A stretch of DNA of 64,000 bases from Candidatus Falkowbacteria bacterium. GTDB lineage: Bacteria > Patescibacteriota > Patescibacteriia > Patescibacteriales > UBA12075. Made by a program: the position numbers and the translations under genes. This document shows, piece by piece, positions 9,026 to 58,696 of this stretch. Location: NCBI GenBank assembly GCA_003514005.1, contig DOSJ01000004.1, positions 37,533-101,532 of the forward strand, in the 5' to 3' direction. The notes under the pieces were generated by a model that saw nothing but the letters and a program-made list of their open reading frames with translations, did no database searches and had not been told where the DNA came from. The stretch's first letter is position 1; every line of letters starts with the position of its first letter.

Positions 9026-9030
9026 AAAAA

Positions 9031-9050: not shown

Positions 9051-9058
9051 ATGTTTGT

Positions 9059-9088: not shown

Positions 9089-9123
9089 AGAGATGTTCAT
9101 TGCAACGCGTCTGCATTGAGACA

Positions 9124-9954: not shown

Positions 9955-9960
9955 AGATTT

Positions 9961-10596: not shown

Positions 10597-10658
10597 ATTG
10601 TTTTGGAATTAGTATATATATTATACCATATCCAAAACAATTGTCAATAACATCACAT

Positions 10659-10687
10659 GTAGAGACGCCCAATTTGGGCGTCTCTAC
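10659..10687. repeat. Perfect palindrome GTAGAGACGCCCAA-T-TTGGGCGTCTCTAC
   Basis: 14-bp arms. Same GTAGAGACG...CGTCTCTAC family as 9059-9088, on the other side of the TA cassette. Confidence 0.9.
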
Positions 10688-10703
10688 GGCAAATGTTTAT
10701 TAG

Positions 10704-10712
10704 TTATCCACA
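10704..10712 (+). promoter_or_regulatory. Perfect TTATCCACA 9-mer (DnaA-box consensus), function unknown
   Basis: Exact match ~140 bp upstream of the -10 at 10844. Confidence 0.4.
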
Positions 10713-10843
10713 AAAATAATTATTTTAATATTAGTAAAATCGTATTTTTTTAAATGCGATTTTTTGTTTTATTTTTTGGCTAATAATAAACTTTTATTTA
10801 TTAATAATTCGGAAAGAAATATTCGCTTTTTAAGCATAAAATA

Positions 10844-10852
10844 TGGTATAAT
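10844..10852 (+). promoter_or_regulatory. Extended -10 promoter of giant ORF 2
   Basis: TGgTATAAT, with flanks conserved with the promoter at 1859. Confidence 0.6.
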
Positions 10853-10870
10853 ATAGTTAGAAAAATGTTA

Positions 10871-10902
10871 TATCTCGAGTATCGAGATGAGCTAATATTA
10901 AA
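10871..10902 (+). promoter_or_regulatory. Conserved leader: hairpin TCTCGA-GTA-TCGAGA plus TGAGCTAATATTAAA
   Basis: Second copy of the block at 1918-1949. It ends 12 nt (hairpin 28 nt) before the ATG at 10915. Confidence 0.55.
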
Positions 10903-10914
10903 GATTAATTTTCA

Positions 10915-13900
10915 ATGTTTAGAACGCTAAAAAATAACTGCAAAAAGTTACTGTTTGGGGTAATTATTTTTTTGTTTATAACATTTATTTTTTCGGCAAT
11001 TCCCAGTTCTGCGTCAGATAAAAAAATAATTTATGGGAAGCAGGACATGTCCCTAGAGTTAGTTTCTGAAATTGGCGATATGAAGAGCAATAATTCCGAG
11101 TTGGAACTAAAACTTAAAAAGAAGCGTAAACTGCCCGGAGCTGTTGGCGCTTTTTTTAAAGGTTTTTTTGTGGATGAGTTTAAGAAAGCGGAAATTAGCG
11201 CGGAAATGGTAGAAGGCGAGAGTGAAGAAAGTGATTTTTTTGTTGAAACTTTTTATCAGGAAGACGGTGAATTTTCAGTTCAATTAAAGCCAAAAGGACG
11301 GCAGGTAAAACCAGGCTTGCATAAAGTAGTTATTACTTTGAAAGACGAAAAATTAACCGGTAATGAAACAATCAGTTTTGTGCAGGATTTTAGTTGGGGT
11401 GTTCTGGCTTTTAATAGTAATAAATCAATTTATCAACCGGATGAAAATGCGTATTTGCAGATGGGGGTTTTGGATGAGCTTGGACACACAGTTTGTGGCG
11501 CTGATCTGGAGATGATTATTACCGCACCGGATAAAGGTAAGGCGGTTTTAAGTACAAAAAACGGTTTGATTATCCGCAACCCGGAATGCGGGCCGGATAA
11601 TGTTATTTTAACTCCGGATTATTACGCGAATTATGGTTTGGGAGAGATTGGTGAATATACTGTGAAATTAATCGCTACTACGGAAAAAGGTTCTTGGGAG
11701 ATAAGCGATGTTATTAGCGTGCAGGCCGAATCGCCTTTTGTTGTCGAGCGCATCGGGCCGACGCGTATCAATCCGACAGCGGAGTATGGGATGATGGTGA
11801 AGATTAGGGCGAATGAGGATTTTAGCGGAAACCTTATCGAAAAAATGCCGGAGGATTTTAAAATTTCTAATTTCCAATTTCTAATTTCTAATCAATTACA
11901 AATTACAAATTACAAATTACAAATAGATGATGCTGGAAAAAATTTGATTTTGGAGAATATTATTCTTAAAAAAGGAGATGAGGCAACATTGATTTATAAG
12001 TTTGACGCGCCGGATATTTTTCCGGAATTTTATTTGCTGGGTCCGCTTGAAGCAATCTCCGCCCAAGGCGGACCAGCCATAGGCTGGGAAAATCGCAGCT
12101 GGCAGATCGCGTCGGACGGCGAGAATCAGGTGATTGTGGCACAGAAGATTGCGATTGATGCCGGTACGGCGGACACTGTAAATTGGACAGAAGCGGTTAA
12201 GGCGACATCCACGCTATTTAGCGGAGGACAGAAATATTTTGTGTATGTGACGGCTGGTTTTTCAGGAAGTGTGGCCGGTGTAATTTCGAATTTTGAAATT
12301 TTGTATGGAAGCACGATCCAATATTCCGGCTCAATTGAAGCATCCGGGGATCAAGCGAATGACGCGATGCAGATTTCTTGGTTTGATGTAATGGATCAGG
12401 CGGCAACCCCTGAGGACATTATTTTACGTTATCGCACTGTTTCCGGAACTTCGTATATAATGAACGCGCAGATTGTGGCAATGAATATCAGTAACCTGGA
12501 AACGACTGATTGGAAATATGCCGTCAATTCAACATCGCGCGCTTTAACTACAACCGTAACCGCGGACGCAAACATTACCATGAATAACGCTGATGGCGTC
12601 AAGGATTGGCTGGTGTTTGCGATGGCGGAAATTGATATTTCAAGCGCGTTAAGACAATATGTCAGCCAAATATACAATGGCGCAAGCGCCTCTATGTCAT
12701 TTCAAAGAGAAGGTGAAAATACGAATGAATTTTTACCGCACGCCATATATCGACCATTTGATAACGTGGCGCAAAATACGGTTTTTAGTATTCGCAATTA
12801 TTCAATCACTTCCAATGTTAACACGCACTTGCGCAGCCGCGTTTTTGCTTTGAATTTGAACCGTTTTGAAAGCTTTAAAACATATTATGCAGATCTTCCC
12901 TCGACCGCGATCAACGGTACCTGGACGGTGATAGGTAATTTGAATAGCGGGGGAAATTACGCCCCGCAGACAAGTGGCGACCAACTGATCTTTTCTTCGT
13001 TTATAAATGATATTACGGCAAATACGAATGAATCGGACGATCGTTTGCAAGTGAATGGGGTAACAGTGCCGACCAGCTGGAGCTGGGGGCAGTCGCCGGC
13101 CGGATACCGGACCGGTTATGACGCCGCGGACGAGCCGGTACATAATATTGTCGCAAGAGTAAGCATTCCGACAACCGGACAGACAATCAGTTTGGACGCG
13201 ATTGAGGTGCCCAATTCCACTCAGGTCGGCGACGAGGTGAGCTTGGCCGCGTTCAGTACACGGCTCAAGAATATTAATCGGCCTTTTGGCGTCGTTAATT
13301 CCAAATCTTTCCGCGCGGATGGATCCGGGGTTGTTGATTTTGCTTTTGACGTATCGGATCGCGACCTGGATGACGCGCGCGTTAAAGTCGAATATGAACA
13401 AGGAAGCACCTGCGCCTTTAGTTCGTCTGCCAAGACAACTATCAGCACGGTTGACGCCGATACTACCGCTACTTATGGCGACCCCAAGGTGGATAATACG
13501 AATGCTTATCAAGTCGGTACCACGACCGGTTGGATTACGACTACCTTCGGTACGAGCACGGTCAATTTTGATTGGACTAGTCAGGCCAATATACCTTATG
13601 CATCCAGCACTTATTGCGTGCGCCTGACCGCAAATGACGGAACAAATGATCAGCTGGTATCGGCGACTACAACTGTTTACATCGACAATTTTGATCCGAT
13701 AATTTCTGGTGTTGCGATTCCTGATCGGATGTACAAGATTGGCGACACCATGACCGCGACTATCACGCTAGCGACGGCGGAATCGGATGCACTGACAATT
13801 GGTACTAGCTCTGAAATAAATGGCGGCCCAATATTTAATTTACAGAAAATTAACAACACGACTTTTACTGCCGATTATCTGATAGCAAGCGGACAGACAG

Positions 13901-16900
13901 ATCGCGCGAGCAATACCATCCCGTTTGAAATATCCTTGGTGGATCCTTATCTTAACCAAAGCGCGTCATCATCCGGATCATTCAGCGGCGGATCGATTGA
14001 TGCTAACGCTCCTGAGATAACAGCGGTTGAAATTGTTAATCTGATGTATGGTATAGGAGACATTATGACAGCAACGATAACGACTGCCTTGGATGCCAGC
14101 CTTTATCTTTTGGAGACATCTTCGCTTAATGCCGCAACGAGCGCGACCGCGAATCTGACAAAGATCAATAACACAACCTATACGCTGGAATATACGGTTG
14201 CCGAAGGCAATGTTGATCGCGCAACCGGAACGATACCGTATCATATTGTTTTGCGCGATTCTTATGGCAATATCAATGCGCCGTATGCCGGTGTTTTTGC
14301 GAATGGATCGCTGGACGCGCATGCTCCGATTATCCAGGCCGTTTATTTGAATAACGGTGCTTATGGTATAAACAGCAGTTTGCCGATTATCATTGATACG
14401 GCGGAAACGGGTTTGGCTTTGGGAGAGAGTACCGTGAACGGAAAGACATTATCCGGCTTTTCGGACCTAGCAGATACGACTTATCAGGCATATTATATCG
14501 TGGCCGAAGGCGATATGGACAGAACGGCCGGGAATGTGCCGATTTCGATAATCATGCGCGATAATTATGGCAATGAGAACGCGGCCTATGTTACACCGGC
14601 CGCGAATACGGCTTCAGTGGATGCGCACAAACCCGAGATACTTTCGATCGTTATCCCAAATCTTGTTTACAAAATCGGCGATACGATTCGCGCGACTGCG
14701 ACGGTAGCGGCTGACGTGGCTGCCTATACGCTTGGAACGACAACTGTTAATAATGTTGCGGCAAGTAATTTGCAAAAATATGATAACTCAACTTATACTT
14801 TTGATTATACGGTCTTGTCCGGACATACGGATCGCTCGGCTGGAACGATTCCGTTTTCGCTGATGTTAAAAGATCAGCTGGAGCAGTATAATGATCCCGC
14901 CTTTACCGCGATTACCGCCAATACGGCGTCAATCGACGCGAATGCGCCGGCGGTTTCAGCGCTTAGTTTTGCGCCGTCTTCCGGAGTTCTGAAAATCGGC
15001 GATACGGCAACCGCCACGATTACGGCCGCGAGCGCGGAAACCGGATTGAGCGCGGGCGCGACAATCAATATTAATAGCAAAGACGCAAGAGCCAGCTTTA
15101 CTGAACTTGGTGGTGGAGAGTATCGGATAGTTTATATTGTCGCAGAAGGCGACGTTGATCGTCCGGATAATGATGATTTGCCGGTCAATATTATTTTACG
15201 CGATAGCGCAGGTAATGAATCCGTTGCTTTTCAATCTTCTGATCCGACCAATCGTCCGGGAGTCGATGCCAATCGTCCGGTCATTTCCAATGTAACTTTT
15301 AATATCACATCCGGCGTACTCAAAATCGGCGATACGGCAACAGCGACGATTTATACCGATGGGACAGGGTATTTGGCTGATACGATTACCGTAAACGGCA
15401 TTGATGTTTCCGGCACGTTAGTTTCGGCCGGAGGAAATGATTATACGATTACCTATACCGTGGCCGAGGGACACGATGATATTTTAGACGCCAACGATTT
15501 GCCGATTAATATAGTTTTGAGCGATCCGGCCGGAAATGATTCGATTCCATATACGACAGAAGACGCCAGTAATCGTCCGGGCGTTGATGGACACAAACCG
15601 GTAATCTCCAATGTCAGTTTTAATATCACATCGGGTGTGCTCAAAATCGGCGATATTGCCACGACCACGATTTTTGCGGATGCGTCCGGATATTCGGCCG
15701 GCGCGATAACTATCAATGGTGTTGATGTGTCCGGCACATTGGCTTCAGCCGGCGGCAATGATTATACTGTCAGCTATATTGTTATTGAGGGAAATAACGA
15801 TATTTTGGATGCAAACAATCTGCCAATCAGCATCGTGCTTCGGGATGTGGCCGGAAATAATTCCGTTACTTACGTAACGATTGATTCCGCGAATCGTCCG
15901 GGAGTGGATGCCCATCGTCCGGTAATCAATTCAGCCGTATTTGTCCCGTCATCGGGAATTTTGAAAATCGGCGCAAGCGCCACCGCTACATTATCTGTCG
16001 CGGATGCAGAAGAAAATCTCTCGATTATCAGTGCGACAATCAACTATATTAATGTTGCATCCAGTTTTTTTGAAATCGGTTCCGGTGATTACCGCTTGGT
16101 TTATACCGTTAGCGAGGGCGATAACCCGATTAATGATATTGCCGACTTGCCGGTTTATTTTGTTGTATCCGACGCGGCTGGGAATTATTCACTAGCTTTT
16201 AATTCTTCTGACCCCTCTAATCGTCCAGGAGTTGATGCCAGTCAGCCGATTATTTCCAATGTAATTTTCAATATCACATCGGGTATGCTCAAAATCGGCG
16301 ATACAGCAACGGCAACGATATATTCCGACGAGACAGGATACTCAGCTGGCACGATTACAGTAAACAACGTTGACGTATCCGGCACGCTGGCTTCGGCTGG
16401 CGGCAATAATTATACCGTTGCTTATACTGTGGCAGAAGGGCACGATGATATTTTGGATGAGAATGATTTGCCGATTAATATCGTTTTGAGAGATTCTGCC
16501 GGAAACGATTCGAATCCTTATACGACAGAAGACGCCGGCAATCGTCCGGGTGTTGACGGGCACGCGCCGGTTATTTCCAATGTCAGCTTCAATATCACAT
16601 CCGGTTTGCTCAAGATCGGCGATATAGCGACAGCGACGATTTCCGCGGATGCATCCGGCTATTTGGCCGGAGCGATTACTATTAACGGCGTTGACGTGAG
16701 CGCAAGTTTGGCTTCGGCCGGCGGAAATAATTATACGGTCAACTATATCGTCAGCGAAGGACATAATGATATTTTAGACAGTAGTGATTTGCCGATCAGC
16801 GTCGTACTTGTTGATACGAACGGTAATAATTCCTCGACCTATACGACGGCCGATGCGGGCAATCGTCCGGGTGTAGACGGTCATGCGCCGACTGTGCCGG

Positions 16901-19900
16901 GAAACCTTGGTTTTTATAGTAGGGGAAATAACTCCATTACGCTTAATTTTGGCGCGACAACAACAGAAAGCAATTTTTCCGAATATGTAATTTATTATAA
17001 GGCGGGAACAAGCGGAGTTTCCGAGAATGACAGCCGTTGGGATTCGGGCGATGACGGACATCTAGGGCATATTCTTTTTAGCGGATATGGGTCAACGACG
17101 ATAACGGGACTGCTTTCCCAGACTGCTTATGTTTTTAATATCTGGGCATATGACCAAGCCGGTAATAAGACACAGGCGACAGAGGAACTTTCGGCTGCGA
17201 CGAATTACTTACCGCTTTTATCTGATAATCTAGAACAAAGATTGAATGATAATTTTACGGTTGTTTCCAACAACGCTTGGGCGATCGATCAATCAATGGT
17301 ATTGTCGGCCAGCTCAACAGATCCGGAAGGCGGATATTTTGATTACTATTACGAAGTCATCAGCGCGACCGGCACGCTGACAACCGCGACATCGGTTCCG
17401 GCATCCAGCTGTAATTCCGGAACCGGATTTTTGCAGTGTTCGGAAAAGATTTGGAAACAATCCACCGGTCCGGATTGGTATAACGAGGAATGGCTGTATC
17501 GCAAGCAAATAGTCATTGACTCGGATTTAATCGAAGATGATATGCAGGATTTTCCGATTTTGACCAATACGGTTGATGATGATTTGCGGAGAAATGCCCG
17601 TTCTGACGGACACGATATTTTGTTTACGGCGGCCGATGGCGTTACTAAGCTTTCGTATGAAAGAAAGGTATATGATTCAAGCGATGGCGAATTGATTGCC
17701 TGGGTAAAGACTGATGTTTCTTCTTCAACAGACACGATCGTTTATATGTATTACGGAAACGCGGATGTCGCTTCGGACCAGTCAAGCGCGTCCGGCGTTT
17801 GGGATTCGAGCTACTTGGGTGTTTGGCATATGGATGAGGAGCCGACCGGATCTGCGGATGATATCAAAGATAGTTCCGGCAATAGCCGCCATATGACTTC
17901 GTTTAATATGGGAGCTAGTAAGCGTGTCAAAACCGATACCGGCTATGCTTATGAATTTGATGGCGCAGGCGATTACCTGGAGGACGCGGATGGCGAAAAT
18001 TATATTAATGGACTTTCGGAGTTTACGGTAGAGCTATGGCTGAAATCTGATTTGATTGCGACTGATCGCGGATTTATTATCGGTTCAGCCCCGGCTGGAA
18101 ACGATAGTTTTTTTACCTTGCGCTATGATGATGCCGGAGTTAACGGCGGCGGCAATGATGTGATTAAAGGGGCTATTACGACGACCGTAACTGGCGAGAT
18201 TCAGATGGAAAGTTCGAGTTTTTCCCAGACTACCGATTGGCAGCACTTGGTTTTTCGCTGGGAAAGTGGCCGGCAATATGAGCTTTTGGTTGATGGCGAT
18301 TTGGATACTCCTACTTCTAATGATCCGGCCGGCACAGGTCTTACTTCCGGCGCGTCGACTTTGCGCATCGGGCAGGGCGGAAAAGATATTACAACCGCGC
18401 TTGGTTGGGATGGTTTGATTGACGAGGTCCGCATTTCCAATGTTTACCGTTCCGATGCTTGGGTAAAAACAGCTTATAACAATCAATCCAATTTGGCTTC
18501 GTTTGCCCTATTTGGCGCGCAGGATGCCGTCCGCATATTCAATCTTCCCGAATCGGATGACGGCTATATCTGGCAGGTGATGGCTTGCGACCAGCTGGGT
18601 GCCTGTTCAGAATGGGTAAAATATAATGAAGAGTCGCCGAATTTCAAGGTGGATAATACGCCGCCGACAGCGCCGGGCAGTTTAAGCGAAAATTCCAAAA
18701 CATCAACTAGCGTTACGTTTAACCTGTCGGGCACAAGCACGGAATCGTTTTTCAGCGATTACCGCATTTATTACAAAGAATATGGCGGCGATGTTGTTTC
18801 TACTAATGATTCGTATTTCGGGACATCATCCGACGCGAATTTGTCAAATATCCTTTTTAATGGAGCGTCTACCACTACGGTTCCATTCTTGACCGCCGAT
18901 ACGGAATACCAGTTTAATATTTGGGCTTTTGATGAATCCGGCCAAAGCGCGAGCGCTACGCCGATTGTTGTTACGACAGAGATCGGCACAAATCGTCCGA
19001 CTGGTTTGTTTGACTCGGTCGAGCAGAAGCGGGACGGTTCCGGTAGGATTGATATTGGGATAATCGTGAATGACCTTGATAACAACCCTTCCCGGGCGCG
19101 GATTGATTATGTGTCGGGCGTGGCATGCAATTTTTCTTCGCCTTTGGATCCGTATCTTGATGAAGACGGCGCGAATATTTCAGCGACAAATTTACCGGCC
19201 CCTTTGATTGATAATGCTTCAGCGTACCAGGTTGGTACCGGAAGTGAATGGATTTTGACAGCGCCTGCGGCGAATAATGTAGGCTTTGATTGGCTGTCTG
19301 CGCTTAACTTGTCTGGCGTTGAAGGAAACTATTGTCTGCGTCTGACCGTGAATGACGGAGTATATAGCCAGCTGGTTCCTGCGACATCTACCGTGTATAT
19401 TGATAATGCTAGGCCAAGTTCGCCCGGCGCATTGTCATTGGCTGAAAAAAATACTGAAACCCTGGTGTTGACATTTGGGGCAACCTCTACGGAAACCAAT
19501 TTTGCCGAGTACAAGATATTTTATAAGATCGCGGATGGTACTGCGCCGGATGAATCAGACAGCGTCTTGTCATCAAGTACGGATATTAATTTGTCTGATA
19601 AATTTTTCAATACCGCGGCAACGACAACAATCAGTGATTTGATGGCCGGCACTATATATAGTATTGTGATCTGGGCGTACGATGATTATGGTAACGCCGC
19701 CAGCTCTTCGTATGTGAATTTTACCACAAACCATATTCCCTCCGCGCCGACAAACCTTCGACAATACAAAGCGGACGGAGTAACGGAAATTGTAAACAAC
19801 GGCTGGACGATAGAAGATATCGCGACGATACAAGCCGAGGTTAATGACGGCGATGCCGGCGAAAATATCAGTCTTTATTTTGAATTACTTGCGAATAGCG

Positions 19901-22900
19901 ATACGTTTAGGACTGCGACGACCGTGCCATTCAATGCTTGCGCGCCGGATGATTCCTGGTCGGATTGCGCAAGTAAAATTTGGAAAGTAACATCCGTGGC
20001 CGGCGACTACTCAGTAGCTCCTTTCAGCGGAACAACTAGTCCGGCGAACTTGCCAAATTCCAACAGCGGATTTAAATGGCAGGTTATTGCCTGTGATAAT
20101 GACAACGTCTGTTCGGAATGGACGCGTTATAATGACGCGATTCCGAATTTCAAGATTGATTTTATTGCGCCGACCGCTCCCGGCGATTTAAGCGTTGCCG
20201 CTTATACGAGCAATAGTATCACCTTGAATTTTGGCGCAACCACGACAGAAGAGAATTTTAAAGAGTATATAATTTATTACAAAGAGGGCACAAGCGGCGT
20301 AAATGAAACAAACACAAAGCACGGTTCCAGTACAGATGGCAATTTGGCGCATATTTTATTTAATAGCGCGGCTACAACGACTATTAGCGGTTTGAATGCT
20401 GGCACCGCTTATTTTTTTAATATCTGGGCGTATGACCAGGCCGGAAATAAAAATTATGCGGTTTATGAAATTAGCACGACTACGAATAACAAACCGCAAA
20501 GCAATATTGTATCAGCTATGCAAAAAACCAATGGTACAGGAGGCGTTGATATTGTAATTTCAGCCAATGACGCGGACGTGGAAAATCTGTTTGCTATGTT
20601 GGAATTCGCGACCGGAACAGATTGTTTATTTACATCTGCCGGAGACCCGACGCTTGATGAAATTGATGCTAACGCGACCTCGAGCCAAGCCGATGCCAAG
20701 ATCGAAAATGATAACGCTTATCAGATTGGTAATGCGTCCGGATGGATCGTAACGACGGGCGGAGCAAATGCGGTTTCTTTTGATTGGCTTTCTAATACGG
20801 ATTTACCCAATCAATCGGGAACATATTGTTTGCGAATAAGAACAAATGACGGCCATGAAGACAGTGTGTTTGCCACAACCACGCTCATGATCGACAATCT
20901 CAGTCCGACCGCGCCTGGAAATTTAAGCCTGATTGAAAGCCATGGAAATTATTTTGTTCTTGGTTTTGGCGCGACCAGCACGGAAACGAATTGGTTGCGC
21001 TATCGGATTTTTTATAAGCAAGGCGTATCCACGGTCAATGAAAACGATCTGGAATTAATTGATTCTGATTTGGCTGATAAAAATTATAACAATACGGCTA
21101 CGACTTCTGTTTCCGGTTTGCTTGCGAATACGCAATACAGCTTCCGCGTTTTTGCCTATGATATTTATGGCAATAAAGCGCAATCCGGACAAGAAACGTT
21201 TACTACCAATTCTTATCCGTCTTCCTCGTTCAATTCCGCGGCTCAGAAAATCGACGGTAGCGGAAGAGTGGACATTTCTTTGGAAATATACGATACGGAT
21301 GGGGACAATTGTTATGCCAAGCTGGAATTCGCGACCGGAACGGCGTGTGATTTTTCTAGTCCGGGCGACCCGGAGCTAGATGAAGGTTCAGAAAATATTT
21401 CTGTTGATTACGAACCTTTGGGGATCGCAAATACAAATGAATATCAAATCGGCACAGCGGGTGCGCCGATTATCACAGACCAAGGTTCCAATACCATTGA
21501 TCTGGATTGGCTGTCAAAAAGCAATTTGCCGACAGCGGACGGCGATTATTGTCTGCGCCTGACCGTTACGGACGGGTCGGATACGCATAGCGCGACAACG
21601 ACGCTTACGATTGACAACGCCGTTCCGCAAAGACCGGCTGATTTAACGATCGGTTATGCCGATGTCAGGACAATTCGGCTTGATTTTGGTTCGGCTGGCA
21701 GTGATACGCATTTTAAAGAGTATAAGATTTTTTATAAAGAGGGCGTAAGCGGCGTAGCGGAAACCGATAGCGCATGGGACAAGAATGACGACGCTGCCCT
21801 TGGCATAGAGGATTTTGGCGCAGCCGCGTCAACGACAATCGGCGGTCTTTTGCCTGATACGGACTATGTTTTTAATATTTGGATTTATGATGATTTTGGC
21901 AATAAGTCTTTTGCAAGCGGCGAGATATCCAGCTCAACCTTGGAAGCGGTCAGCGCAACCTGGCGCGAGACCGAGGATACGCCTGATCCGACTACTGGAG
22001 TATATGCTTCAAAAGAGCAGACTGTCCGATTGCGCGTGGCAGTAGCCAATTCCGGGACCTGGAGTACCGAAGATTATCGGTATGACTTGCAATATGGCAT
22101 TAAAGATGGAACTTGTGAAAATGTTTCCGCTTGGACTTTGGTGCCGGCAACTGCCGCGGGTGAACATTTTGAAATGAAATCAAGTGTATATTTTATTGAA
22201 AATGCGTCAACAACGCCGCGTTTAACTGGCGACGGCTATGCATTCCGACCAGGATATATGGTACAAGCACCGTTTAGTCAGACCGGAACGATTACGCTTT
22301 ATGGAAATGAGTATTCGGAATTGGAATATACGATAGCCGCGACAACTGATGCCAGTCGTAGCGCAACATATTGTTTTCGCGCGGTTAATCAGGGCGCGGG
22401 TGTCGATGATTATGGGGTTTATCCGGAATTTTCTTTGACGCCACCTCCCTTAAGCGATTTTGTTTCAGCGGTACAGAGAGACGACGGCAGCGGACGCGTC
22501 GATGTTCGTTTTACAGCCGATGATTATAGTAATCAGAATTTGCGTCTAAGAATGGATTATGCGACCGGAACCTTGTGCGACTTCAGCCAGCCGGGAGACC
22601 TAACATTTGATATTTTGAATGAGAATACAAGCGCAACCTATGGCGACCCCTTGATTGATAATGACGCACCTTATCAGATCGGAACCGGTCTTGCGTATGT
22701 TTTGACGCAATATGGCGAAAATACCGTTGATTCTGATTGGCTTTCCGGTGGCGATCTTGGCGGGATTGAAGGAGAATATTGCCTGCGTTTAACTGCTAAT
22801 GATCTTTTTGACGACCAAACCATACCGGCGACTACGACGGTAATGATAGATAACAAAGCGCCGACAGCACCGGGAAATCTGAGCCTGATGTCAAAGACAA

Positions 22901-25900
22901 TCAATAGCGTTACTATTGAATTGGGCGCGACTTCTTCAGATTTGAATTTTTTTGAATATCGGATTTATTACAAGGAAGGCGTGAGTGGAGTTACCGAATC
23001 TGATTCTATGCATGCATCTAACACTGATCCAAATTTGGGTAATGTGTTGTATAACGGCGCGGCCAGTACGACGATAAATAATTTGATTGCCAATCGGCAA
23101 TATGTTTTTCGGATTTATGCTTATGATAAATACGGCAACAAGTCCGCGTCCGTGGGAGAATTTACAACCAAACTCGTACCCTCTATTTCCGGTATTGTTT
23201 ATGCCGCTGATGGTATTACGCCAATTTTGACAGCACCGAATGTTACTATGGTAGTCAACGGTGCGGTAATGGAGACCGTGTCCGCATCGGCGGCAAACGG
23301 CAGATTTATCTTTTGGGAAATCGATCCGCCAGCAACCGGCACGCCGATGCTGGTTTATGTCAATGGCAACAGCATGAAAGGCGCGACTTATTCGCTGTAT
23401 GGCGGCGCGGGAGAAGTGACGGATATGCATATTTATTCGGAACGAGTCGTTTTACGCCATTATGGATCTGAGGTAATTGGTAATGAACATATTGAAACCT
23501 ACGACAATGATCAAGATGCGGACATCATGATTCAAATCGATGGCGGAAATCTTAGCATACTTGGTAACAGTGAACTATATATTTGGCCGGGGTCAACTTT
23601 TAAAAACAACGCAAGCGTCTTGACTTTGTTTGATGTTCGAATTGAAGGCACGCTAGACGCTTCATCAACCGAAATTATTACAGTTTCCGGTAATTGGAAT
23701 GCGGAGAATGGCATATTTAATGCGGCGTCTTCTAGCGTCAAATTTGTAGCAAACGATCAGGACAATGTAATTGTTACAAACAAACAAAAATTTTATAATT
23801 TGGAATTTGACGGTCTTGGCGGAAAATGGACACTGATTGACGGCGCGACTACGACCGCGACGACGACCATAAGTCAAGGAACGCTAGTCCAAGGTGGAGA
23901 TGTTGATTTTGAAACCGGTAGTTTGATAATCGAACTGGGCGCGAATTTTACAAAAGCCAGTGGTACTGGGGTGTTTGTGTTTGAGGATCTTGGTCAAGGA
24001 GTATTTGAAGACAAAAACGACGTTAAAAATAATCTTGGTAATGTAATAATCGGGCATTCGCCTGCCTCAACTTTTCTTGCTTCCGATATGGTTGCTGATA
24101 GCTTAACCGTTAACAGCGGCGACAGTTTATTTGCGCGCGGTTATGAATTAGATATTACGAGATTTATTACAGTTAATGGTACGCTTGATTGTATTGATGA
24201 TAGTGAGGGAGATGGAACTATTATTACGCTTGGCACAAATTGGACGGTATTGCCGACCGCGACGTTTATTGCTGGAAACTCCACGACGACTTTTGACAAC
24301 GCGACCGGCGGAATTATTAGTACAGGTGGAATTGACGCAAATCACGATTTTTATAATCTTAGTTTTGCGAAAACTGCGGCTACGACAACGGTGCTTGGCG
24401 GGTATCCGCTAAAAGTTTCCGGTGATTTGACTATTGGCGCAAACTCAACGCTGGATGTTTCATCTTCAAATTACGATATTTATGCCGGCGGCAATTGGAT
24501 TAATAACGGCGTGTATAACGCGCGAAACGCGACAACGACATTTGATTCCGTCTCGACCGGAAAAATAATAAATCCCGGACAATCCGCGTTTAACCGCATA
24601 ATATTTAATAGCGCAAGCGGCGGCTGGAATATTATCGGAAATGCAACTTCAAGCTCGGATTGGATTATGACTAGCGCATCCGCTTTTAGTGTTAGCGCGG
24701 ATAAGACCATCGAAGTACGGGGTCAATACATTTTGGCAGACACGATACCGGATATTAGTACATGGAATTCCGGTTCAACCCTGTATTTGAATAATGGCGG
24801 CGCTTATACGGTCGCGACAAAAAATCAAAGCGCGGAGACCTACGCAAATTTAAAAATCGGCGCTGATACGGATATTCGGATGTGGAATTCCGGGTCTGAT
24901 ACAGCTAGTGTTGATTCAAGCGGATCGCTTTATTCAATGGATTATGCCGGTACGAATGGCGCATTGCGCATTTGGGGAGACTACCACTCATTGGAAAGCG
25001 CTGATTATTGGAGTTATGCAAAGGATTTTGACGGCGCAGACATATCTGGTACGCCACGCGCTTGCCAAATTCAGATTTTTGGCGGATCAAATCTTGATTA
25101 TTCGAGTTCTGTCTTGGAAATTGTCGGAACGAGTGGCGCGACAACGACAATTGCCAATCAAAGTTCCGGCGCCTATTCTTTGTCAATTGCCGATACTTTT
25201 TTAACTATGGATTATTTTCAAATAAGAAACATAGATAGCAACGGCTTAAATATTTCCGGTACAACTACGCTTGGTAGTATTAACAACGGTGATTTTGAGC
25301 TTGATGTGGAAGGTGGCGCATTAATAAGCGTAACAGCAGAAACAATCAACGCAAGTTCATGGTCAACCAGCACCAATATTCGTTTTGCAACCAGCACGGG
25401 AATAGCAAATGGCAATAATGTAAAGTTAAGCGGAATACCGACAGCACCTTGGACATTCGTTTCGCACTATGGAAATCTTGCCGGCGAGGCTTTTGACAGC
25501 GACTCGGGCGATCCGCGCGGCTATATTCTTTGGGATGACAGCCCATCGTATTCACCAAAATCACAAAATTGGCGCTGGTATCATGATGAAGACAAGGAAA
25601 CGCCGCTTATTCCGATTGCCTTGGAAAACTATTCTCCGCAAATTGTTGGCAATGGCAACCTTATAAAACTTCGAATGACAATCAAAGAAACAGAAGGCAT
25701 TTCCGGTGCCAATGTAAAAATGCGCTTGCAATACTCCACAGATTCAAATTTCGATTCGGATGTCAGCTGGGTAGGAGAAAAAGGCTCAACAACCGCGCTT
25801 TGGACATGTGGCGAGGGCATTGATAACGACAATGATTTAATAAGTACTTTGGCATTGACAGACTCGTTAATTAAAGCAACCCATAATGAGTCCGGAATTT

Positions 25901-32090: not shown

Positions 32091-32143
32091 ATAATTTGAG
32101 ATTTGAAAAAAATCTTCATTATTTAATACTAATTTTCCCCATT

Positions 32144-32233
32144 TGTCATTCCCGTACCCCTCCGGGCATAAACTCCGGCGGGAATCCAGGGGTTATCGTC
32201 CGAATCTGGATTCCCGCCTACACGAGAATGACA
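32144..32233. repeat. Nested palindromic GC-rich element (TGTCATTCCCG...GCGGGAATCCAG/CTGGATTCCCGC...AGAATGACA)
   Basis: Outer arms TGTCATTCCCGT / ACGAGAATGACA. The inner arms are a perfect 12-bp inverted repeat, 32178-32189 / 32206-32217. A GC-rich island in AT-rich spacer, which explains the spurious ORF 32030-32287. Confidence 0.85.
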
Positions 32234-37496: not shown

Positions 37497-37643
37497 CGAA
37501 TGTCGAGTGTCGAGTGTCGAATTTTAATAACTGTTTATTAATTTTGTTTTCTTATTAATTTATGTTATAATATGTTTATAAATATTTTGTTAATTATTTT
37601 TAAAATTAACACTCGAAATTCGACACTCGACACTCGACATTCG
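37497..37643. repeat. Perfect 28-bp inverted repeat flanking a 91-nt spacer that contains a promoter
   Basis: CGAATGTCGAGTGTCGAGTGTCGAATTT (37497-37524) is the exact reverse complement of 37616-37643. The spacer carries TGTTATAAT at ~37563-37571, pointing at the Hsp20 gene. Confidence 0.95.
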
Positions 37644-43879: not shown

Positions 43880-43895
43880 CGTCGTATCCAAATGT

Positions 43896-43998
43896 AAAAT
43901 GTAAATCTCAAAATTCAAAATTGCAATGTAAAATTTAAAAATTTATTTATTAATTTTTCATTTTAAACTGCAATTTTGAATTATGAGATTTACATTTT
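43896..43998. repeat. Imperfect ~39-nt inverted repeat (hairpin) between the two tRNAs
   Basis: AAAATGTAAATCTCAAAATTCAAAATTGCAATGTAAAAT pairs with CATTTTAAACTGCAATTTTGAATTATGAGATTTACATTTT. 24-nt loop. Confidence 0.8.
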
Positions 43999-44077
43999 AA
44001 ATTATACTAATTTATATAATCATGGGATTTTAATATTTAAAACAAGTTTAAAACCAAAAATATTAAATTAAATAAAG

Positions 44078-46373: not shown

Positions 46374-46979
46374 ATGCAAACATACATTATTTACGGAGCA
46401 ATATCAGCGATTATAATTTATTTTTTAAGTAAATTTATTTTTGATCTTTTGTTGCGCGGTTTTTCGCCATTTATCCAATCCCGGCCATGGGTGGTTGACC
46501 AGATTTCTTCGCACTTAAAAATAACGCAAAAAAATCCGAACTTTTTAGCCCTAAGCTCAGGCCGTTCTGGTTTTTTTAATGTTCTTGCAAAAAAATATCC
46601 GACCGCAAAATTGACAGGAGTTGAGCCGTATTTTTTTTCTTATTTGGTCGCGATAACGCAAATTTTTATCAGGCGCAGTCCAATAAAAATTATCCATCAA
46701 GCCGTCCATCATGTAAATTATAAAGAAGCAGACCTTGTTTATTGTCATTTAGAGCCGGATCAGATGCGCGACCTGGGTGCAAAATTGAAGTTTGAATGCA
46801 AACCGGGCGCGTTGATTGTCAGTACCGGTTTTAACATTGTCGGCCTCAAACCATCTAAAGTAATTGATTTGCCAGATCGCAAAGGCAGGCTGGATTGGCT
46901 TTCAAAAAACCAAAAACTATTTCAAGCAAAGCATAAGAAATATAAAAAGGAAAAAAAGGCTTATTTTTATGAGATTTAG
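46374..46979 (+). CDS. Putative class I SAM-dependent methyltransferase-like protein (weak)
   Basis: N-terminal TM helix. 'LALSSGRSGFFNVLAKKYPTAKLTGVE' loosely resembles motifs I/II of Rossmann methyltransferases. Confidence 0.35.
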   Translation: MQTYIIYGAISAIIIYFLSKFIFDLLLRGFSPFIQSRPWVVDQISSHLKITQKNPNFLALSSGRSGFFNVLAKKYPTAKLTGVEPYFFSYLVAITQIFIRRSPIKIIHQAVHHVNYKEADLVYCHLEPDQMRDLGAKLKFECKPGALIVSTGFNIVGLKPSKVIDLPDRKGRLDWLSKNQKLFQAKHKKYKKEKKAYFYEI

Positions 46980-47051
46980 AGGTAATTTGCAATAATATAG
47001 TTTTTTGCTAAAATAAGTTTAATAAAATAATCTCGTCATTTTAATCGTCAC

Positions 47052-47179
47052 GCAAATGTTTGATATTTCTTATTTTTCCTCCTGTCCCCTTCGGGACTCG
47101 CACACACCATGTGGTAGTTCAATTATTTTTTAGGCTCAAACAGTCCTCGGAGTAAAAATAAGAAATATCAAACATTTGC
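47052..47179. repeat. Structured ~125-nt repeat, copy 1 (long covarying stem; MITE-like or RNA element)
   Basis: GCAAATGTTTGATATTTCTTATTTTTCCTCC ... GGAGTAAAAATAAGAAATATCAAACATTTGC. The second copy is at 52995-53115. It lies in the argS 5' UTR, with a putative promoter TTGCAA-16-TAAAAT at ~46986-47013. Confidence 0.85.
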
Positions 47180-47202
47180 TAACTAAAATAAATACATTTT
47201 TT

Positions 47203-48966
47203 ATGTACTCACTTAATAAAATAAAACAAACTATTGCAGAAGAGGTAAATCGGATTGTTGGTGCTGATATTGTTTTGGCTGAAAATCTGGTCTATCCGCC
47301 GAATGCCGAGATGGGGGATTTGAGTTTGCCGTGTTTTGTTTTGGCAAAACAGCTAGGTAAAAATCCGGCGCAGGTGGCGGAATTTTTGGTAGGTCAAATA
47401 AAATCCAAGGGCGCAATCGCGGGCGTGAGCGCGCTTGGGCCGTATTTTAACATCAAGCTTGTTAAAAATGTATTGGCTAGTTCGGTTATTCATGAGATTA
47501 ATGAACAAAAAGAAAAATATGGAATTAACGAAAGTGGCGAAAGGCAAAAGCTATTGATTGAATTTTCCAATGTGAATACGCACAAGGAGTATCATGCCGG
47601 ACATTTGCGCAATCTTTGTTATGGCGACGCGGTTACGCGGATCATGTCCGCAAATGATTATCAGGCCATACCGGTTTCGTATGTGAACGATTTCGGAATT
47701 CATGTGGCAAAAACATTGTGGGCGCTCATCGCTTATTACCTAGACGACAAGCTTGGGGCGGATATTGACGAAGATTTGAAAAAAGTTCCTGATAATGGCA
47801 ATCGGGGCGCGTTTTTGGGCGGTGTTTATGTAAAAGCGAGCCAGGAATTAAAAGAAAATAAAATTGCCAAATCGTTGGTTGAAATAATAATGAAAAAGAT
47901 CGAAAGCCGGAGCGGACAAGAATACGCGCTTTGGCAGAAAACGCGTGAATGGTCAATCGCGCAATTCGCGAAAATTTACGAAGAGCTTGGTGTTAATTTT
48001 ATTAAGACCTATTATGAAAGCGAATTTATTGATCGCGGGCGGGAGTTGGTTTTTGAATTATTAGATAAAGGGATCTTGCGCAAGAGCGAGGGCGCGGTGA
48101 TTGCCGATCTAGAAGAATACGGGCTTGGCGTCCTCGTCGTGTTGCGTACCGACGGTACGGCTACTTATCCGGTAGCTGACATTCCTTTGGCAATGGCAAA
48201 GTTCAAGGAGTACGAACCGGATGCTTCAATCTATATCGTGGATATCCGGCAGGCGCTATATTTCAAGCAGTTATTTCAGATTATGAAATTAATGGACTAT
48301 AAAAAGCCGATGATCCATTTGGGTTATGATGTTGTAAAATTACCGACCGGTATGATGTCGTCGCGTTCGGGCAATGTTATTACTTATGAAGATTTGAAAG
48401 AAAAATTAATTTCAAAGGCTAGCGCGGAAACGGTCGCGCGCCATCCGGAATGGGCAAAAGAAAAAATTGATTCTGTCGTAAACGCATTGGTTAAGGGCAC
48501 AATAAAATTTGAAATGTTAAAAATAGGACAGGATCAACCGATAACTTTTGACATGGAAAAGGCTTTGAGTTTTAGCGGTTTTACAGCGGCGTATTTGCAG
48601 TATACTTTTGCGCGGATGCAGAGTATTATTCGGAAAGACTATGAGTTAAGTAAGAAGTTAGAAGTAAGAAGTGAGAAGGATTTTAATTTGAGTAATCTTA
48701 CTGAAGAAAAAGAGCACAAATTGGTATTAAAGCTGGCAAAGTATCCGGAGGCGGTGAAGCAGGGTGGGAAGAATTTTGATCCTTCGGAAATTGCGCGGTA
48801 TCTTTTTGAATTGGCGCAGGAATTGAACGATTATTATCATAGTGTTCCGATCTTAAAAGTCGAAGCAGATGTTTGTCTTGCTAGGTTGCAACTGATTGTT
48901 TCCGCGTGCCAGATTATTTCAAATGGTCTTGGTTTACTGGGTATAGAAACGATCGATGAGATGTAA
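47203..48966 (+). CDS. argS: Arginyl-tRNA synthetase
   Basis: 'FSNVNTHKEYHAGHLRN' (HIGH region) and 'MSSRSGN' (KMSKS variant). The anticodon-binding DALR-type C-terminus ends in '..DEM'. The ATG at 47203 is preferred over the listed TTG at 47176. Confidence 0.9.
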   Translation: MYSLNKIKQTIAEEVNRIVGADIVLAENLVYPPNAEMGDLSLPCFVLAKQLGKNPAQVAEFLVGQIKSKGAIAGVSALGPYFNIKLVKNVLASSVIHEINEQKEKYGINESGERQKLLIEFSNVNTHKEYHAGHLRNLCYGDAVTRIMSANDYQAIPVSYVNDFGIHVAKTLWALIAYYLDDKLGADIDEDLKKVPDNGNRGAFLGGVYVKASQELKENKIAKSLVEIIMKKIESRSGQEYALWQKTREWSIAQFAKIYEELGVNFIKTYYESEFIDRGRELVFELLDKGILRKSEGAVIADLEEYGLGVLVVLRTDGTATYPVADIPLAMAKFKEYEPDASIYIVDIRQALYFKQLFQIMKLMDYKKPMIHLGYDVVKLPTGMMSSRSGNVITYEDLKEKLISKASAETVARHPEWAKEKIDSVVNALVKGTIKFEMLKIGQDQPITFDMEKALSFSGFTAAYLQYTFARMQSIIRKDYELSKKLEVRSEKDFNLSNLTEEKEHKLVLKLAKYPEAVKQGGKNFDPSEIARYLFELAQELNDYYHSVPILKVEADVCLARLQLIVSACQIISNGLGLLGIETIDEM

Positions 48967-51218: not shown

Positions 51219-51370
51219 ATAAGCAATTTTGGGAGATTGGCACCCGAAAAAAATTGCTTATCAATCAAGGCGCCCCGGTTGCGATCGGGGAAACTAGATG
51301 GAACCGCGGGAATTACCTCGTTCTAGTACTTAAAAATAATTTTTTAAGTATTGGAACGAGGTCTTTTTTT
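51219..51370 (+). promoter_or_regulatory. Glycine T-box riboswitch leader (minimal Stem I) with intrinsic terminator
   Basis: Stem I AAGCAATTTT..AAAATTGCTT has the apical loop AGAUUGGCA, with the GGC Gly codon followed by A. Stem III is CCCCG-GTTGCGAT-CGGGG. The T-box is AACTAGATGGAACCGCGGG, with UGGA in the bulge. The antiterminator ACTAGA/TCTAGT competes with the terminator ACCTCGTTC...GAACGAGGT + CT7 (51315-51370). It lies upstream of glyQS. Confidence 0.7.
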
Positions 51371-51378
51371 ATAAAGAA

Positions 51379-51522
51379 TACAAATTACAAATTGCTACAA
51401 ATATCACAAATATTAATTAAAAAATTAGTTATAATTAAGACGTTTAAACTAGGTGATTATCTTTGTTAAAAAAAATGTAAACGAAAAGTATTTGTGTAAT
51501 TTATAGCAATTTGTAATTTGTA
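51379..51522. repeat. Imperfect 34-nt inverted repeat of ATTACAA-type heptamers flanking a 76-nt AT-rich spacer
   Basis: TACAAATTACAAATTGCTACAAATATCACAAATA pairs with TATTTGTGTAATTTATAGCAATTTGTAATTTGTA (3 mismatches). The spacer contains GTTATAAT. Confidence 0.85.
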
Positions 51523-51563
51523 ATCTTAAAATAATTTGTAATCTTATAATAATTCAAAAAAAT

Positions 51564-52964
51564 ATGCAAAATCAAACAACAATTGAAAAAATCACATCAC
51601 TTGCAAAACGGCGGGGTTTTGTGTTTCCGTCTTCGGAAATATATGGGGGCTTTGCGGCCGTGTACGATTACGGTCATTATGGCATTTTGTTAAAAAATAA
51701 TTTGGCGGCGGCTTGGTGGAAGCATATGGTGCAGTTGCGTCCGGATGTTGTTGGTTTGGATTCGGCGATATTTATGCATCCGACAACCTGGAAAGCGAGC
51801 GGGCATGTGGACGGCTTTGATGATCCACAGATCGATTGCCGCGATTGTAAAGCGCGCATGCGCGCGGATCATATGCTCGAAGCTTTTGGAATCGACGCGG
51901 ACAAGATGAGTGCGGCAGAAATAAATGAACAGATTGAAAAATTAAAAACAGAGGGCAAGGAATTGAAATGTATTTCCTGCGGGAAAAAGAACTTAACTCC
52001 TGCAAAAAGATTTTCGCTTATGGTAAAGTCCAATCTTGGTTCACCGACCGATGCTTTAAGCGAAGAGAATGTGGTATATTTGCGTCCGGAAACATGTGGT
52101 GGAATTTATTTGAATTATAAAAATACATTGGATTCAACCAGGGTTAAATTGCCGTTTGGTATTGCCCAAGTCGGTAAAGCTTTTCGCAATGAAATAGTCG
52201 CGCGCCAATTTATATTCCGCACGCGCGAATTTGAGCAGATGGAAATGCAATATTTTTTGCATCCATCCGACATGAACCGGAAATACGAGGAATGGAAAGA
52301 AGCGCGTTGGCAGTGGTATTTGGAATATGGCATTAAGGCGGAAAATCTGCGCTGGTACAAGCATATTAAGCTCGCGCATTACGCGGCCGCGGCTTTTGAT
52401 ATCGAATATAACTATACAGCACTTGGCGGATTCAAGGAGATGGAAGGTATTCATCAACGCGGTGATTGGGATTTGTCACAGCATAGTAAATTTTCAGGAC
52501 AGAAATTGGATTATACGGATCCAAAAAGCGGCGAGAAATTTATTCCGCACATCATGGAGACATCAGTTGGTCTCAATCGTATGTTTTTTGCATTTTTGCA
52601 CGAGGCTTATACCGAGGAAGGCGAGGGCGAAGATATGCGCGTTGTATTAAAATTCGACAAACGTTTGGCGCCGGTTAAAATAGCGGTTTTCCCTTTGCTA
52701 AAAAATAAGCCGGAGCTGGTTGCGAAGGCCGAAGAAGTCTTTAAAAATCTGGCAAAAAATTATATGTGCGAGTTTGATGATAACGGCAATATCGGCAAAC
52801 GCTATCGTCGTCAAGACGAGATCGGTACGCCGTATTGCGTTACAATCGATTTTGATACTTTGGAAAAAGATAATTGCGTAACCGTCCGTGATCGGGATAC
52901 TATGCAGCAAGAGCGGGTTAGTTTGGAAAATTTAAGTGTTTATTTTGCAGAAAAATTTGTATAA
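51564..52964 (+). CDS. glyQS: Glycyl-tRNA synthetase (alpha2 dimeric type)
   Basis: The N-terminal 'LAKRRGFVFPSSEIYGGFAAVYDYGHYG' and class II motifs ('FRNEI..R..FIFRTREFEQME', 'GIHQRGDWDL', 'ETSVGLNR') are typical of GlyQS. Confidence 0.9.
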   Translation: MQNQTTIEKITSLAKRRGFVFPSSEIYGGFAAVYDYGHYGILLKNNLAAAWWKHMVQLRPDVVGLDSAIFMHPTTWKASGHVDGFDDPQIDCRDCKARMRADHMLEAFGIDADKMSAAEINEQIEKLKTEGKELKCISCGKKNLTPAKRFSLMVKSNLGSPTDALSEENVVYLRPETCGGIYLNYKNTLDSTRVKLPFGIAQVGKAFRNEIVARQFIFRTREFEQMEMQYFLHPSDMNRKYEEWKEARWQWYLEYGIKAENLRWYKHIKLAHYAAAAFDIEYNYTALGGFKEMEGIHQRGDWDLSQHSKFSGQKLDYTDPKSGEKFIPHIMETSVGLNRMFFAFLHEAYTEEGEGEDMRVVLKFDKRLAPVKIAVFPLLKNKPELVAKAEEVFKNLAKNYMCEFDDNGNIGKRYRRQDEIGTPYCVTIDFDTLEKDNCVTVRDRDTMQQERVSLENLSVYFAEKFV

Positions 52965-52994
52965 AATTTTTGAAACTATTTTTAAATCACGAAC

Positions 52995-53115
52995 GCAAAT
53001 CTTAAATATTTCTTATTTTTCCTCCTGCGGAACTCGCCCACACCGCCAGATAATCCAGTCATTGTTTAGGCTCGAACAGTCCTCGGAGTAAAAATAAGAA
53101 ATATTTAAGATTTGC
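52995..53115. repeat. Structured ~125-nt repeat, copy 2
   Basis: GCAAATCTTAAATATTTCTTATTTTTCCTCC ... GGAGTAAAAATAAGAAATATTTAAGATTTGC. Arm differences from copy 1 are compensated on the opposite arm. Confidence 0.85.
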
Positions 53116-53199
53116 TAGAAAAAAAATGACGTTTAATCTTTTAATAAGTGAACGTTATTTTTTTGCAAATCGCATAAAAAAATGCTAATATAATAGCAT

Positions 53200-58466: not shown

Positions 58467-58488
58467 ATAATAATTTTGACATATGCAC

Positions 58489-58638
58489 GACTTACGCATC
58501 CGTTGTTTAATTCGAAAAGTATTTGCTGATATTTTATAATTATTCGATTTGGGCGACTGCACCTTCCATACGCCCCATGAGAAGAATTATAAAATATCAG
58601 CAAATACGGTGGTTGCATAAAAATCAAACGCGTAAGTC
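58489..58638. other. ~150-nt extended hairpin (possible sRNA, MITE or bidirectional terminator)
   Basis: Outer stem GACTTACGC/GCGTAAGTC. The middle stem is 26/27 bp (58519-58545 / 58581-58607). Apical stem GGGCG/CGCCC. It lies between convergent genes. Confidence 0.8.
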
Positions 58639-58696
58639 CTAATTTGCAAAAATAGAAAAAAATAAAATGTAAAGATAAATTAGAAAAATCCTGTTA

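Follow-up and report, generated by a model that had tools for sequence, protein, structure and literature searches.

A previously undescribed hairpin element with an invariant core and freely varying arms in Candidatus Falkowbacteria and other bacteria

The 64,000-nucleotide (nt) stretch of the Candidatus Falkowbacteria contig DOSJ01000004.1 analysed here (positions 37,533 to 101,532, referred to below as the window) contains two copies of a non-coding hairpin element, one located 5′ of the arginyl-tRNA synthetase gene argS (copy 1) and the other 3′ of the glycyl-tRNA synthetase gene glyQS (copy 2). The element is ~105–135 nt long and belongs to a previously undescribed family in which 37 nt of core sequence are almost constant while the surrounding arms vary freely and keep their pairing; judging from the contigs that carry it, the core appears to be present in at least one other phylum besides that of the Falkowbacteria host. 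The reading that we favour, although tentatively, is that it is a non-autonomous, selfish palindromic mobile element that would act as a folded single strand.

Both window copies are encoded on the + strand at the positions proposed by a sequence-only reading of this DNA (Table 1), which also identified correctly the argS and glyQS genes and the DUF4147/MOFRL glycerate-kinase-type gene. A repeat finder places the two copies in the two-member family D13, and the core blocks common to them have no further occurrence in the window (chance expectation 0). The arms are 31 nt long and 97 % complementary, with 66 nt (copy 1) and 59 nt (copy 2) enclosed, and each stem consists of 26 perfect Watson–Crick pairs followed by a C.U mismatch and then by CUCC/GGAG. 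Folded as RNA, copies 1 and 2 reach −51.6 and −47.5 kcal/mol (z = −9.6 and −9.2 respectively; 0/200 shuffled sequences as stable), and as single-stranded DNA they score z = −9.5 and −7.0, with the opposite strand folding equally well. Three stem pairs differ between the copies (G-C to C-G, U-A to A-U and G-C to A-U) and pairing is kept in all three, so the differences are compensatory as had been claimed. The variable heptamer that the same reading placed at the outer end of the stem does vary, but at only three of its seven positions, and it is internal, the outermost six pairs (GCAAAT/ATTTGC) being the same in both copies.

Copy 1 departs from the family in one respect. The GTCCC-CTTC-GGGAC hairpin noticed earlier in this copy is present. 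It results from a 7-nt segment, CCCCTTC, combined with an A-to-G substitution, and in the minimum-energy fold it takes the place of the core helix P2, whose 5′ strand it sequesters. Because the ortholog in the close strain L024 reads ...CCTGTGGAACTCGCA... and is without the CCCCTTC segment, the extra hairpin is a recent, lineage-specific insertion that disrupts P2 and not a module of the element. Copy 2 is followed by a terminator-like hairpin that a simple terminator consensus scan missed, its loop being longer than 8 nt, and that is homologous to the terminator GACGTTCAAGC...GCTTGAACGTTTTTTT found past the stop of glyQS in L025, a relative without the element. Copy 2 is therefore placed inside the glyQS 3′ untranslated region (UTR), and its + strand, lying between stop codon and terminator, must be transcribed.

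Table 1. Features of the two element copies, and the hairpin 3′ of copy 2, in the window
Feature	Position in window	Strand	Remarks
Copy 1, whole stem-to-stem hairpin element	47052–47179	+	Between a 201-amino-acid (aa) gene (46374–46979) and argS (47203–48966); covariance model R1, 105 bits; inverted repeat I7
Copy 1, 5′ arm, 26 nt	47052–47077	+	Perfect pairing with 47154–47179
Copy 1, 5′ core block, CTCCTGT[CCCCTTC]GGGACTCGCA	47079–47102	+	Deviates from family consensus CTCCTGCGGAACTCGCC
Copy 1, lineage-specific 7-nt insertion CCCCTTC	47086–47092	+	Not in L024 ortholog
Copy 1, variable apical region (P3 interior), 30 nt	47103–47132	+	
Copy 1, 3′ core block, GGCTCAAACAGTCCTCGGAG	47133–47152	+	
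Copy 1, 3′ arm	47154–47179	+	
Copy 2, whole hairpin element, glyQS 3′ UTR	52995–53115	+	30 nt past the stop of glyQS (51564–52964), 5′ of terminator; R1, 117 bits; inverted repeat I8
Copy 2, 5′ arm, 26 nt	52995–53020	+	Perfect pairing with 53090–53115
Copy 2, 5′ core block, CTCCTGCGGAACTCGCC	53022–53038	+	Equals family consensus
Copy 2, variable apical region (P3 interior), 30 nt	53039–53068	+	
Copy 2, 3′ core block, GGCTCGAACAGTCCTCGGAG	53069–53088	+	
Copy 2, 3′ arm	53090–53115	+	
glyQS terminator-like hairpin, ACGTTTA...TGAACGT then T-run	53129–53164	+	Outside element, 3′ of copy 2; read directly

The sequence-only reading had proposed that more copies be collected, and the core does recur beyond the window. 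When the databases were scanned for exact matches to the 3′ block GGCTCNAACAGTCCTCGGAG, the 17-mer CTCCTGCGGAACTCGCC of the 5′ block being left outside the query, the JGI metagenome collection yielded 10 stretches representing eight distinct loci, and in seven of these the 17-mer is found, with no more than two mismatches, 9–30 nt 5′ of the 3′ block; the eighth (L012) is a weak, partial copy. Three exact 3′-block matches were also obtained from 185,579 species-representative genomes (596 Gb), but all three are without the 17-mer and the rest of the element and are attributable to chance, since ~4 are expected by our own arithmetic. The nine full copies available (eleven with two orthologs found by synteny) are the two in the window, two more from the same Candidatus Falkowbacteria organism (L008 and L009, the proteins of which fall in the accession series of its metagenome-assembled genome), one on a Verrucomicrobiae-like contig (L013) and four at other metagenome loci. 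At least four copies are thus present in one genome, that of the groundwater bacterium Candidatus Falkowbacteria GW2011_GWC2_38_22 / GWE1_38_31 / GWF2_38_1205, from which the window comes. The remaining loci have 47–53 % GC and carry ordinary bacterial chromosomal genes. Fuzzy patterns and the covariance model R1, run over ~265 kb, revealed no further or degenerate copies besides the partial L012, and none is found in ~19 kb beyond the window ends.

No known family accounts for the element. At gathering thresholds Rfam 15 reports only two tRNAs in the whole window and no match to the element, and permissive Rfam scans of copy 1 and five other loci returned only spurious long-hairpin microRNA matches, far below threshold. 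Three patterns gave no real match in IMG/VR, and there is no match to the element in the PLSDB plasmids, GenBank phages or E. coli genomes. A full-text literature search for the core strings retrieved unrelated papers only, and nothing relevant to the element was found in the literature on repeats or motifs of the Candidate Phyla Radiation (CPR).

The 37-nt core is made up of a 5′ block, CUCC-UGC-GGAACU-C-GCC, and a 3′ block, GGC-UCAAAC-AGUCC-UC-GGAG, which form three short helices: an inner CUCC/GGAG helix, P2 (GGA(A)CU/AGUCC, with a bulged A) and the base of P3 (GCC/GGC). The irregularities of this helix are fixed, and comprise a small internal loop of UGC opposite UC, the bulged A, and an asymmetric loop in which a single C lies opposite the 6-nt bulge UCAAAC. 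P3 ends in an apical hairpin of 9–30 nt (9, 9, 12, 24, 24 or 30) of unrelated sequence that pairs in every copy, and the blocks are separated in every case by a number of nucleotides divisible by three (9, 9, 12, 24, 24, 30, 30, 30 and 30 nt). Since the blocks stay juxtaposed while their linear distance varies fourfold, it must be the folded form, not the duplex, that matters. Core substitutions are few and one-sided: L011, L013 and L026 have G-to-A, which gives A.C in each case, and C17 is changed to A in copy 1 and L024 and to G in L026. Around both blocks every metagenome locus has long complementary arms of unrelated sequence, AT-rich in AT-rich hosts and GC-rich elsewhere; the arms are 25–35 bp long and strictly Watson–Crick paired. 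We considered a coding role and rejected it, as the flanks are complementary, a start codon is lacking, several copies contain stops and no consistent open reading frame (ORF) exists.

Small palindromic repeats are common in bacteria and usually have conserved ends and free interiors, with each family confined to one genus. The logic of this element is inverted, with an asymmetric interior that is essentially invariant across CPR and Verrucomicrobiae-like hosts and arms that need only pair. Because the core is invariant and the arms are free, something sequence-specific must read the irregular helix in the folded strand. If the reader is a protein, the element is a candidate for a new hairpin-directed mobilization or recombination system; should the core act alone, it may represent a new ribozyme or RNA module.

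The pairing of the arms is maintained. In the nine-copy alignment, where bulges throw four sequences out of register, 23 arm pairs have changes on both sides and 76.9 % of cells are paired as against 61.9 % in shuffles, with the observed covariation score reached by 0/500 shuffles; these arms, from different organisms, share no common sequence and yet keep their pairing. Among the five Falkowbacteria copies, nine of 26 arm pairs are doubly changed (in 12 cells) and 97.4 % of cells are paired, whereas slid alignments are at most 50 % paired and 0/500 shuffles match the observed score. It is this covariation, in both alignments, that establishes the maintenance of the stem, and it exceeds what two copies could reveal. 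The core helices are invariant, and hence without covariation.

Covariation had been taken in the sequence-only reading to mean selection on structure, but selection on RNA structure does not follow from it. Not one of 130 cells in the Falkowbacteria arms is a G-U pair, despite turnover at nine of 26 positions, and many of the swaps are transversions (for example C-G to G-C and U-A to A-U). Template switching associated with replication homogenizes the arms of inverted repeats and produces compensatory-looking changes in the absence of selection (PMC8604942, PMC7202029), and the lack of G-U pairs and the transversion swaps also fit arm homogenization of this kind. Arm complementarity may therefore be kept at the DNA level. 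The methodological point is a general one, in that compensated stem changes without G-U pairs need not mean RNA-structure selection. In the arms of decayed copies A.C (6) and G.U (11) are about equally frequent, and with both strands folding alike these wobble pairs do not discriminate between the strands. We also rejected the idea that the arms are copied from the target site, given that four Falkowbacteria copies have mutually homologous arms.

Both window sites can be compared with those of relatives, in which the gene order CAP-domain gene, 201-aa gene, argS, ~234-aa gene and glyQS is kept, including in those that are element-free. On the 5′ side of argS the element is absent from L018/L019 (71 % ArgS identity), where only 3 nt separate the 201-aa gene from argS, from L017 and L020/L021 (67–76 %), where tyrS occupies that position, and from L022 and L023 (84 and 83 %), and it is present in the close strain L024 (≥90 %). 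On the 3′ side of glyQS, two members of the window's 90 %-identity glycyl-tRNA synthetase (GlyRS) cluster differ, L026 having the element and L025 lacking it, with an intrinsic terminator 23 nt past the stop; this side is also element-free in L018 and L020. By this comparison the window copies are insertions at orthologous sites and not regulators of synthetase genes, and for genome annotation the apparent argS and glyQS 'leaders' are likewise to be treated as insertions. We note that the two sites (46980–47202 and 52965–53199) are both synteny breakpoints relative to L017–L021: between the 201-aa gene and argS, some relatives have tyrS, in some cases with a tRNA_edit gene as well, and others have nothing, and the gene after glyQS is different in every relative (the MOFRL kinase in the window, Lactamase_B in L018 and RecQ in L020).

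Elsewhere the element adjoins genes for pilus proteins, histidine kinase, exonuclease, methyltransferase and hydrolase functions, and at none of these other loci does it adjoin a synthetase gene. The gene tables of the surveyed loci contain no gene common to the element neighbourhoods and no nearby transposase. All nine loci have the element in the same direction as the gene on its 5′ side, and at two of them (L007 and L010/L014) the downstream gene is convergent. From its GC skew the window + strand is the leading strand, so that it is again the motif strand that is exposed as lagging-strand template; because the transcribed strand and the lagging-template-exposed strand are the same, the orientation rule does not separate an RNA from a DNA reading. 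Target-site duplications, which the earlier reading had suggested looking for, are not visible in four copies aligned with their flanks, nor are there direct repeats at the stem bases. Filled and empty sites, including that of L025, are too diverged to fix the exact ends of the element. Several copies from different hosts have, immediately 5′ of the stem, an RTGAC- or GTCAC-like pentamer (CATGAC in L008, CATGAC in L013, CGTGAC in L014, CGTCAC at window 47043–47051 and GTGCAC in L007), which could be a target or guide motif or have arisen by chance. There is no support for an inverton, in which the segment between the arms would invert, as the two assemblies compared equal the window sequence and all loci have a single orientation.

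Under the mobile-element reading that we favour, the element, which also occurs in other phyla, would have spread among Falkowbacteria by copying to new intergenic sites, where it is found in sense direction, either within 3′ UTRs or in the spaces between cistrons. The irregular core helix would be read by a trans-acting protein encoded elsewhere, for example a hairpin-specific transposase, recombinase or nuclease, and the folded strand that it reads could be either the transcript or the + strand where this is exposed as lagging-strand template. The long arms would serve only to drive folding, their complementarity being kept mainly at the DNA level, and their upkeep could be due to arm-to-arm copying (template switching), to selection for hairpin stability, or to both. 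As a by-product, a 30-bp duplex in host mRNA would be a substrate of the RNase III type and could affect processing of the argS and glyQS transcripts and so, as a likely side effect, the expression of these genes.

Several observations weigh against this reading. Neither a target-site duplication nor an exact insertion boundary is definable, and no autonomous relative or candidate mobilizing enzyme was found. The family is rare, as shown by the lack of any true match among the species-representative genomes, and with nine full copies, or eleven counting the synteny orthologs, the statistics are thin. Strict co-orientation with transcription and the location of copy 2 in a 3′ UTR fit an RNA function equally well, and the G-U pairs of P3 on the + strand (two in L006, and one in copy 1 and L024) hint at folding at the RNA level. 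Finally, for a selfish repeat that encodes no protein, it is unusual to have a 37-nt core conserved almost perfectly from a CPR bacterium to a Verrucomicrobiae-like organism.

The element could instead be a functional, structured + strand RNA, such as a small self-cleaving ribozyme or a protein-binding or RNA-processing module in 3′ UTRs and intercistronic spacers, an explanation that we consider on the whole unlikely but a serious rival; on this reading the invariant internal loops would be its active or recognition site, and the long stem would either clamp the fold or be processed by RNase III to free the core. The co-orientation of all nine loci with their upstream genes and the transcription of copy 2 are in its favour, and the combination of an invariant core, free stems and a patchy distribution over several phyla resembles that of hammerhead and twister ribozymes; moreover P3 covaries and has G-U pairs on the + strand, and L008 has one U-G core pair on that strand. 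However, the Falkowbacteria arms are devoid of G-U pairs, the paired positions of the core are invariant and do not covary, and the core substitutions are one-sided and break + strand pairs (A.C, and C17-to-A or C17-to-G). Furthermore, no Rfam family matches, all ribozyme classes included, no promoter or terminator of its own is conserved, and the element is rare and is gained or lost between close relatives. We are similarly doubtful, without dismissing it, of the broader proposal that the 37-nt core represents an undescribed folded-strand class, being either a new self-cleaving or protein-recruiting RNA or the cis site of an undiscovered hairpin-specific mobilization system (of the HUH or tyrosine type); if true, a hairpin-specific system that reads the irregular helix whatever the arms would explain the presence of the core in both CPR bacteria and Verrucomicrobia.

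Other readings appear improbable. A folded-strand recombination site similar to attC, marking the 3′ ends of genes or gene blocks and used by a tyrosine recombinase for excision, insertion or rearrangement, would have the size (105–135 nt), the conserved extrahelical bases, the unpaired spacer and the variable terminal structure observed, as well as the constant position 3′ of an ORF and in its orientation, and the argS-to-glyQS block is flanked at its synteny breakpoints by copies 1 and 2 as direct repeats. It is nonetheless rather unlikely, as the base of the hairpin is without the R′′/R′ boxes (RYYYAAC/GTTRRRY), the conserved part is apical, the reverse of the situation in attC, no integrase or cassette array lies within ~83 kb, and the bracketed genes are housekeeping genes whose order is kept in element-free relatives. 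The suggestion of the sequence-only reading that the element is a miniature inverted-repeat transposable element (MITE), that is, one derived from an insertion sequence and mobilized by cut-and-paste through its terminal inverted repeats, holds as far as its inverted-repeat termini, short length, non-coding nature, multiple copies and insertion polymorphism at orthologous sites are concerned. An ordinary MITE is quite improbable all the same, because the absence of target-site duplications is accompanied by termini that are the least conserved part and wholly different between hosts, by an invariant interior, by a single orientation relative to genes in all copies, and by the lack of a parent insertion sequence in the surveyed loci. 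The other suggestion, a cis-acting RNA tied to aminoacyl-tRNA synthetase genes, which would then function as a regulatory leader, a riboswitch or a T-box-like control, could be drawn from the location of copy 1 only 23 nt 5′ of the argS start and of copy 2 next to glyQS. A promoter-like site does precede copy 1, at 46987–47014, although such sites are no commoner there than in shuffled sequence. This last reading we find scarcely credible, since relatives lack the element at the same argS and glyQS positions, copy 2 is downstream and not upstream of glyQS, the other loci have unrelated neighbours, two of them lying between convergent genes, and Rfam gives no T-box or riboswitch match.

In its workings the element is most like the Correia elements, REPINs or attC sites, and yet it departs from each of them in defining features. 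The CREE/NEMIS repeats of Neisseria are also ~100–155 bp long, with 26-bp inverted-repeat arms around a core, are intergenic, are co-transcribed with their neighbours and are polymorphic for insertion between strains, and the CREE hairpin RNA is bound or cleaved by RNase III (PMC2649163). CREE differ in having a conserved arm sequence, a TA duplication, a binding site for integration host factor (IHF) and promoter elements, and in being restricted to a single genus, whereas the element described here has free arms, an invariant interior and no duplication that can be seen, and its core crosses phyla. REP sequences and REPINs, which are mobilized by the RAYT/TnpA-REP HUH transposases, are extragenic palindromes often found 3′ of genes, in which pairing is kept by compensated changes; the long hairpin is the replicative unit and is thought to act as single-stranded DNA. 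In REPINs, however, it is the arm that is conserved (REP, with 5′ GTAG) and the loop that varies, and the families are species-specific; the arms of our element are not conserved and are without GTAG, and no RAYT gene was seen in the surveyed loci.

The attC sites, too, are read as a folded single strand of 57–141 nt with a mostly free stem sequence, lie 3′ of ORFs in the same orientation, and depend on extrahelical bases, an unpaired spacer and a variable terminal structure. They differ in the conserved R boxes at the base of the hairpin and in forming cassette arrays beside intI, and the element has an additional 26-bp outer stem. Its hairpin bases (GCAAAT.../...ATTTGC, TAGTAGC.../...GCTACTA and others) contain no R′′/R′ boxes, and the sole RYYYAAC-like string in the element, GCTCAAAC, is located in the unpaired core bulge and has an extra A. 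Small self-cleaving ribozymes (hammerhead, twister, pistol and hatchet) share with the element an invariant core of a few dozen nucleotides, free stems, a patchy distribution and the occurrence of several copies per genome in unrelated contexts, but the element has no Rfam ribozyme match, an unbranched predicted fold with no evident pseudoknot, and an invariant paired core. The TIGR stem-loop arrays of TIGR-Tas systems, which are known from CPR bacteria, likewise have variable palindromic stems around short conserved motifs, and differ in that the units, which carry box C/D motifs and dual variable spacers, are repeated in tandem beside a Nop-domain Tas gene (PMC12045711). Our element occurs as solitary copies with a conserved interior, by inspection has no UGAUGA/CUGA motif in its core, and has no Nop-domain gene in the surveyed 83 kb.

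Some further candidates were rejected, largely by inspection. The 3′ block has ACAGUCCU, as in the substrate of the satellite tobacco ringspot virus (sTRSV) hairpin ribozyme, and the 5′ block has GGAA as in its loop A, but helix 2 and loop B cannot form. Hammerhead, hepatitis delta virus (HDV), k-turn, box C/D, boxA, attC R-box and sarcin-ricin motifs were considered and none fits. The core also contains GGAACT ... TCAAA, reminiscent of an extracytoplasmic function (ECF)-sigma promoter, but the spacing varies from 15 to 36 nt and so it does not constitute a linear promoter.

The window contains several other repeats. At 2362–2534 there is another long intergenic hairpin, a 38-bp perfect inverted repeat around 97 nt of unrelated sequence, with an interior different from that of the element. 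A second dispersed hairpin-repeat family is represented at 58467–58668 (37-nt arms, 58519–58607), at L009:11391–11597 and at L023:1882–1947, the identity to the window being 83 % at the L009 contig site and 92.5 % at the L023 site, which is just 3′ of argS. At 37497–37643, 28-bp perfect inverted arms composed of TCGAGTG heptamers surround an AT-rich segment of 91 nt with TATAAT, and this arrangement resembles a promoter flanked by inverted repeats. Imperfect inverted repeats occur 5′ of glyQS (51367–51534; 46-nt arms at 85 %) and between tRNA-Pro and tRNA-Leu (43891–44003; 50-nt arms at 88 %). A 60-nt stretch at 32134–32193 is 93 % identical to L008:1722–1781, which lies ~40 nt 5′ of the element copy in that contig, and it may represent a further short repeat or else a favoured neighbour.

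The region from 4000 to 24000 and the adjoining L028 encode very large, repeat-rich ORFs (one of 2128 aa, and another with a 5230-aa product that has faint fibronectin-type-III hits), and the internal direct repeats of the large ORFs dominate the window repeat families D1–D20. Defence-type genes are found on both sides of the window: at or beyond its end (L027) these encode a type I restriction HsdR, a D12 methyltransferase, an SMC_N/AAA ATPase and Fic, and near its start (L028) there is an AbiEii gene.

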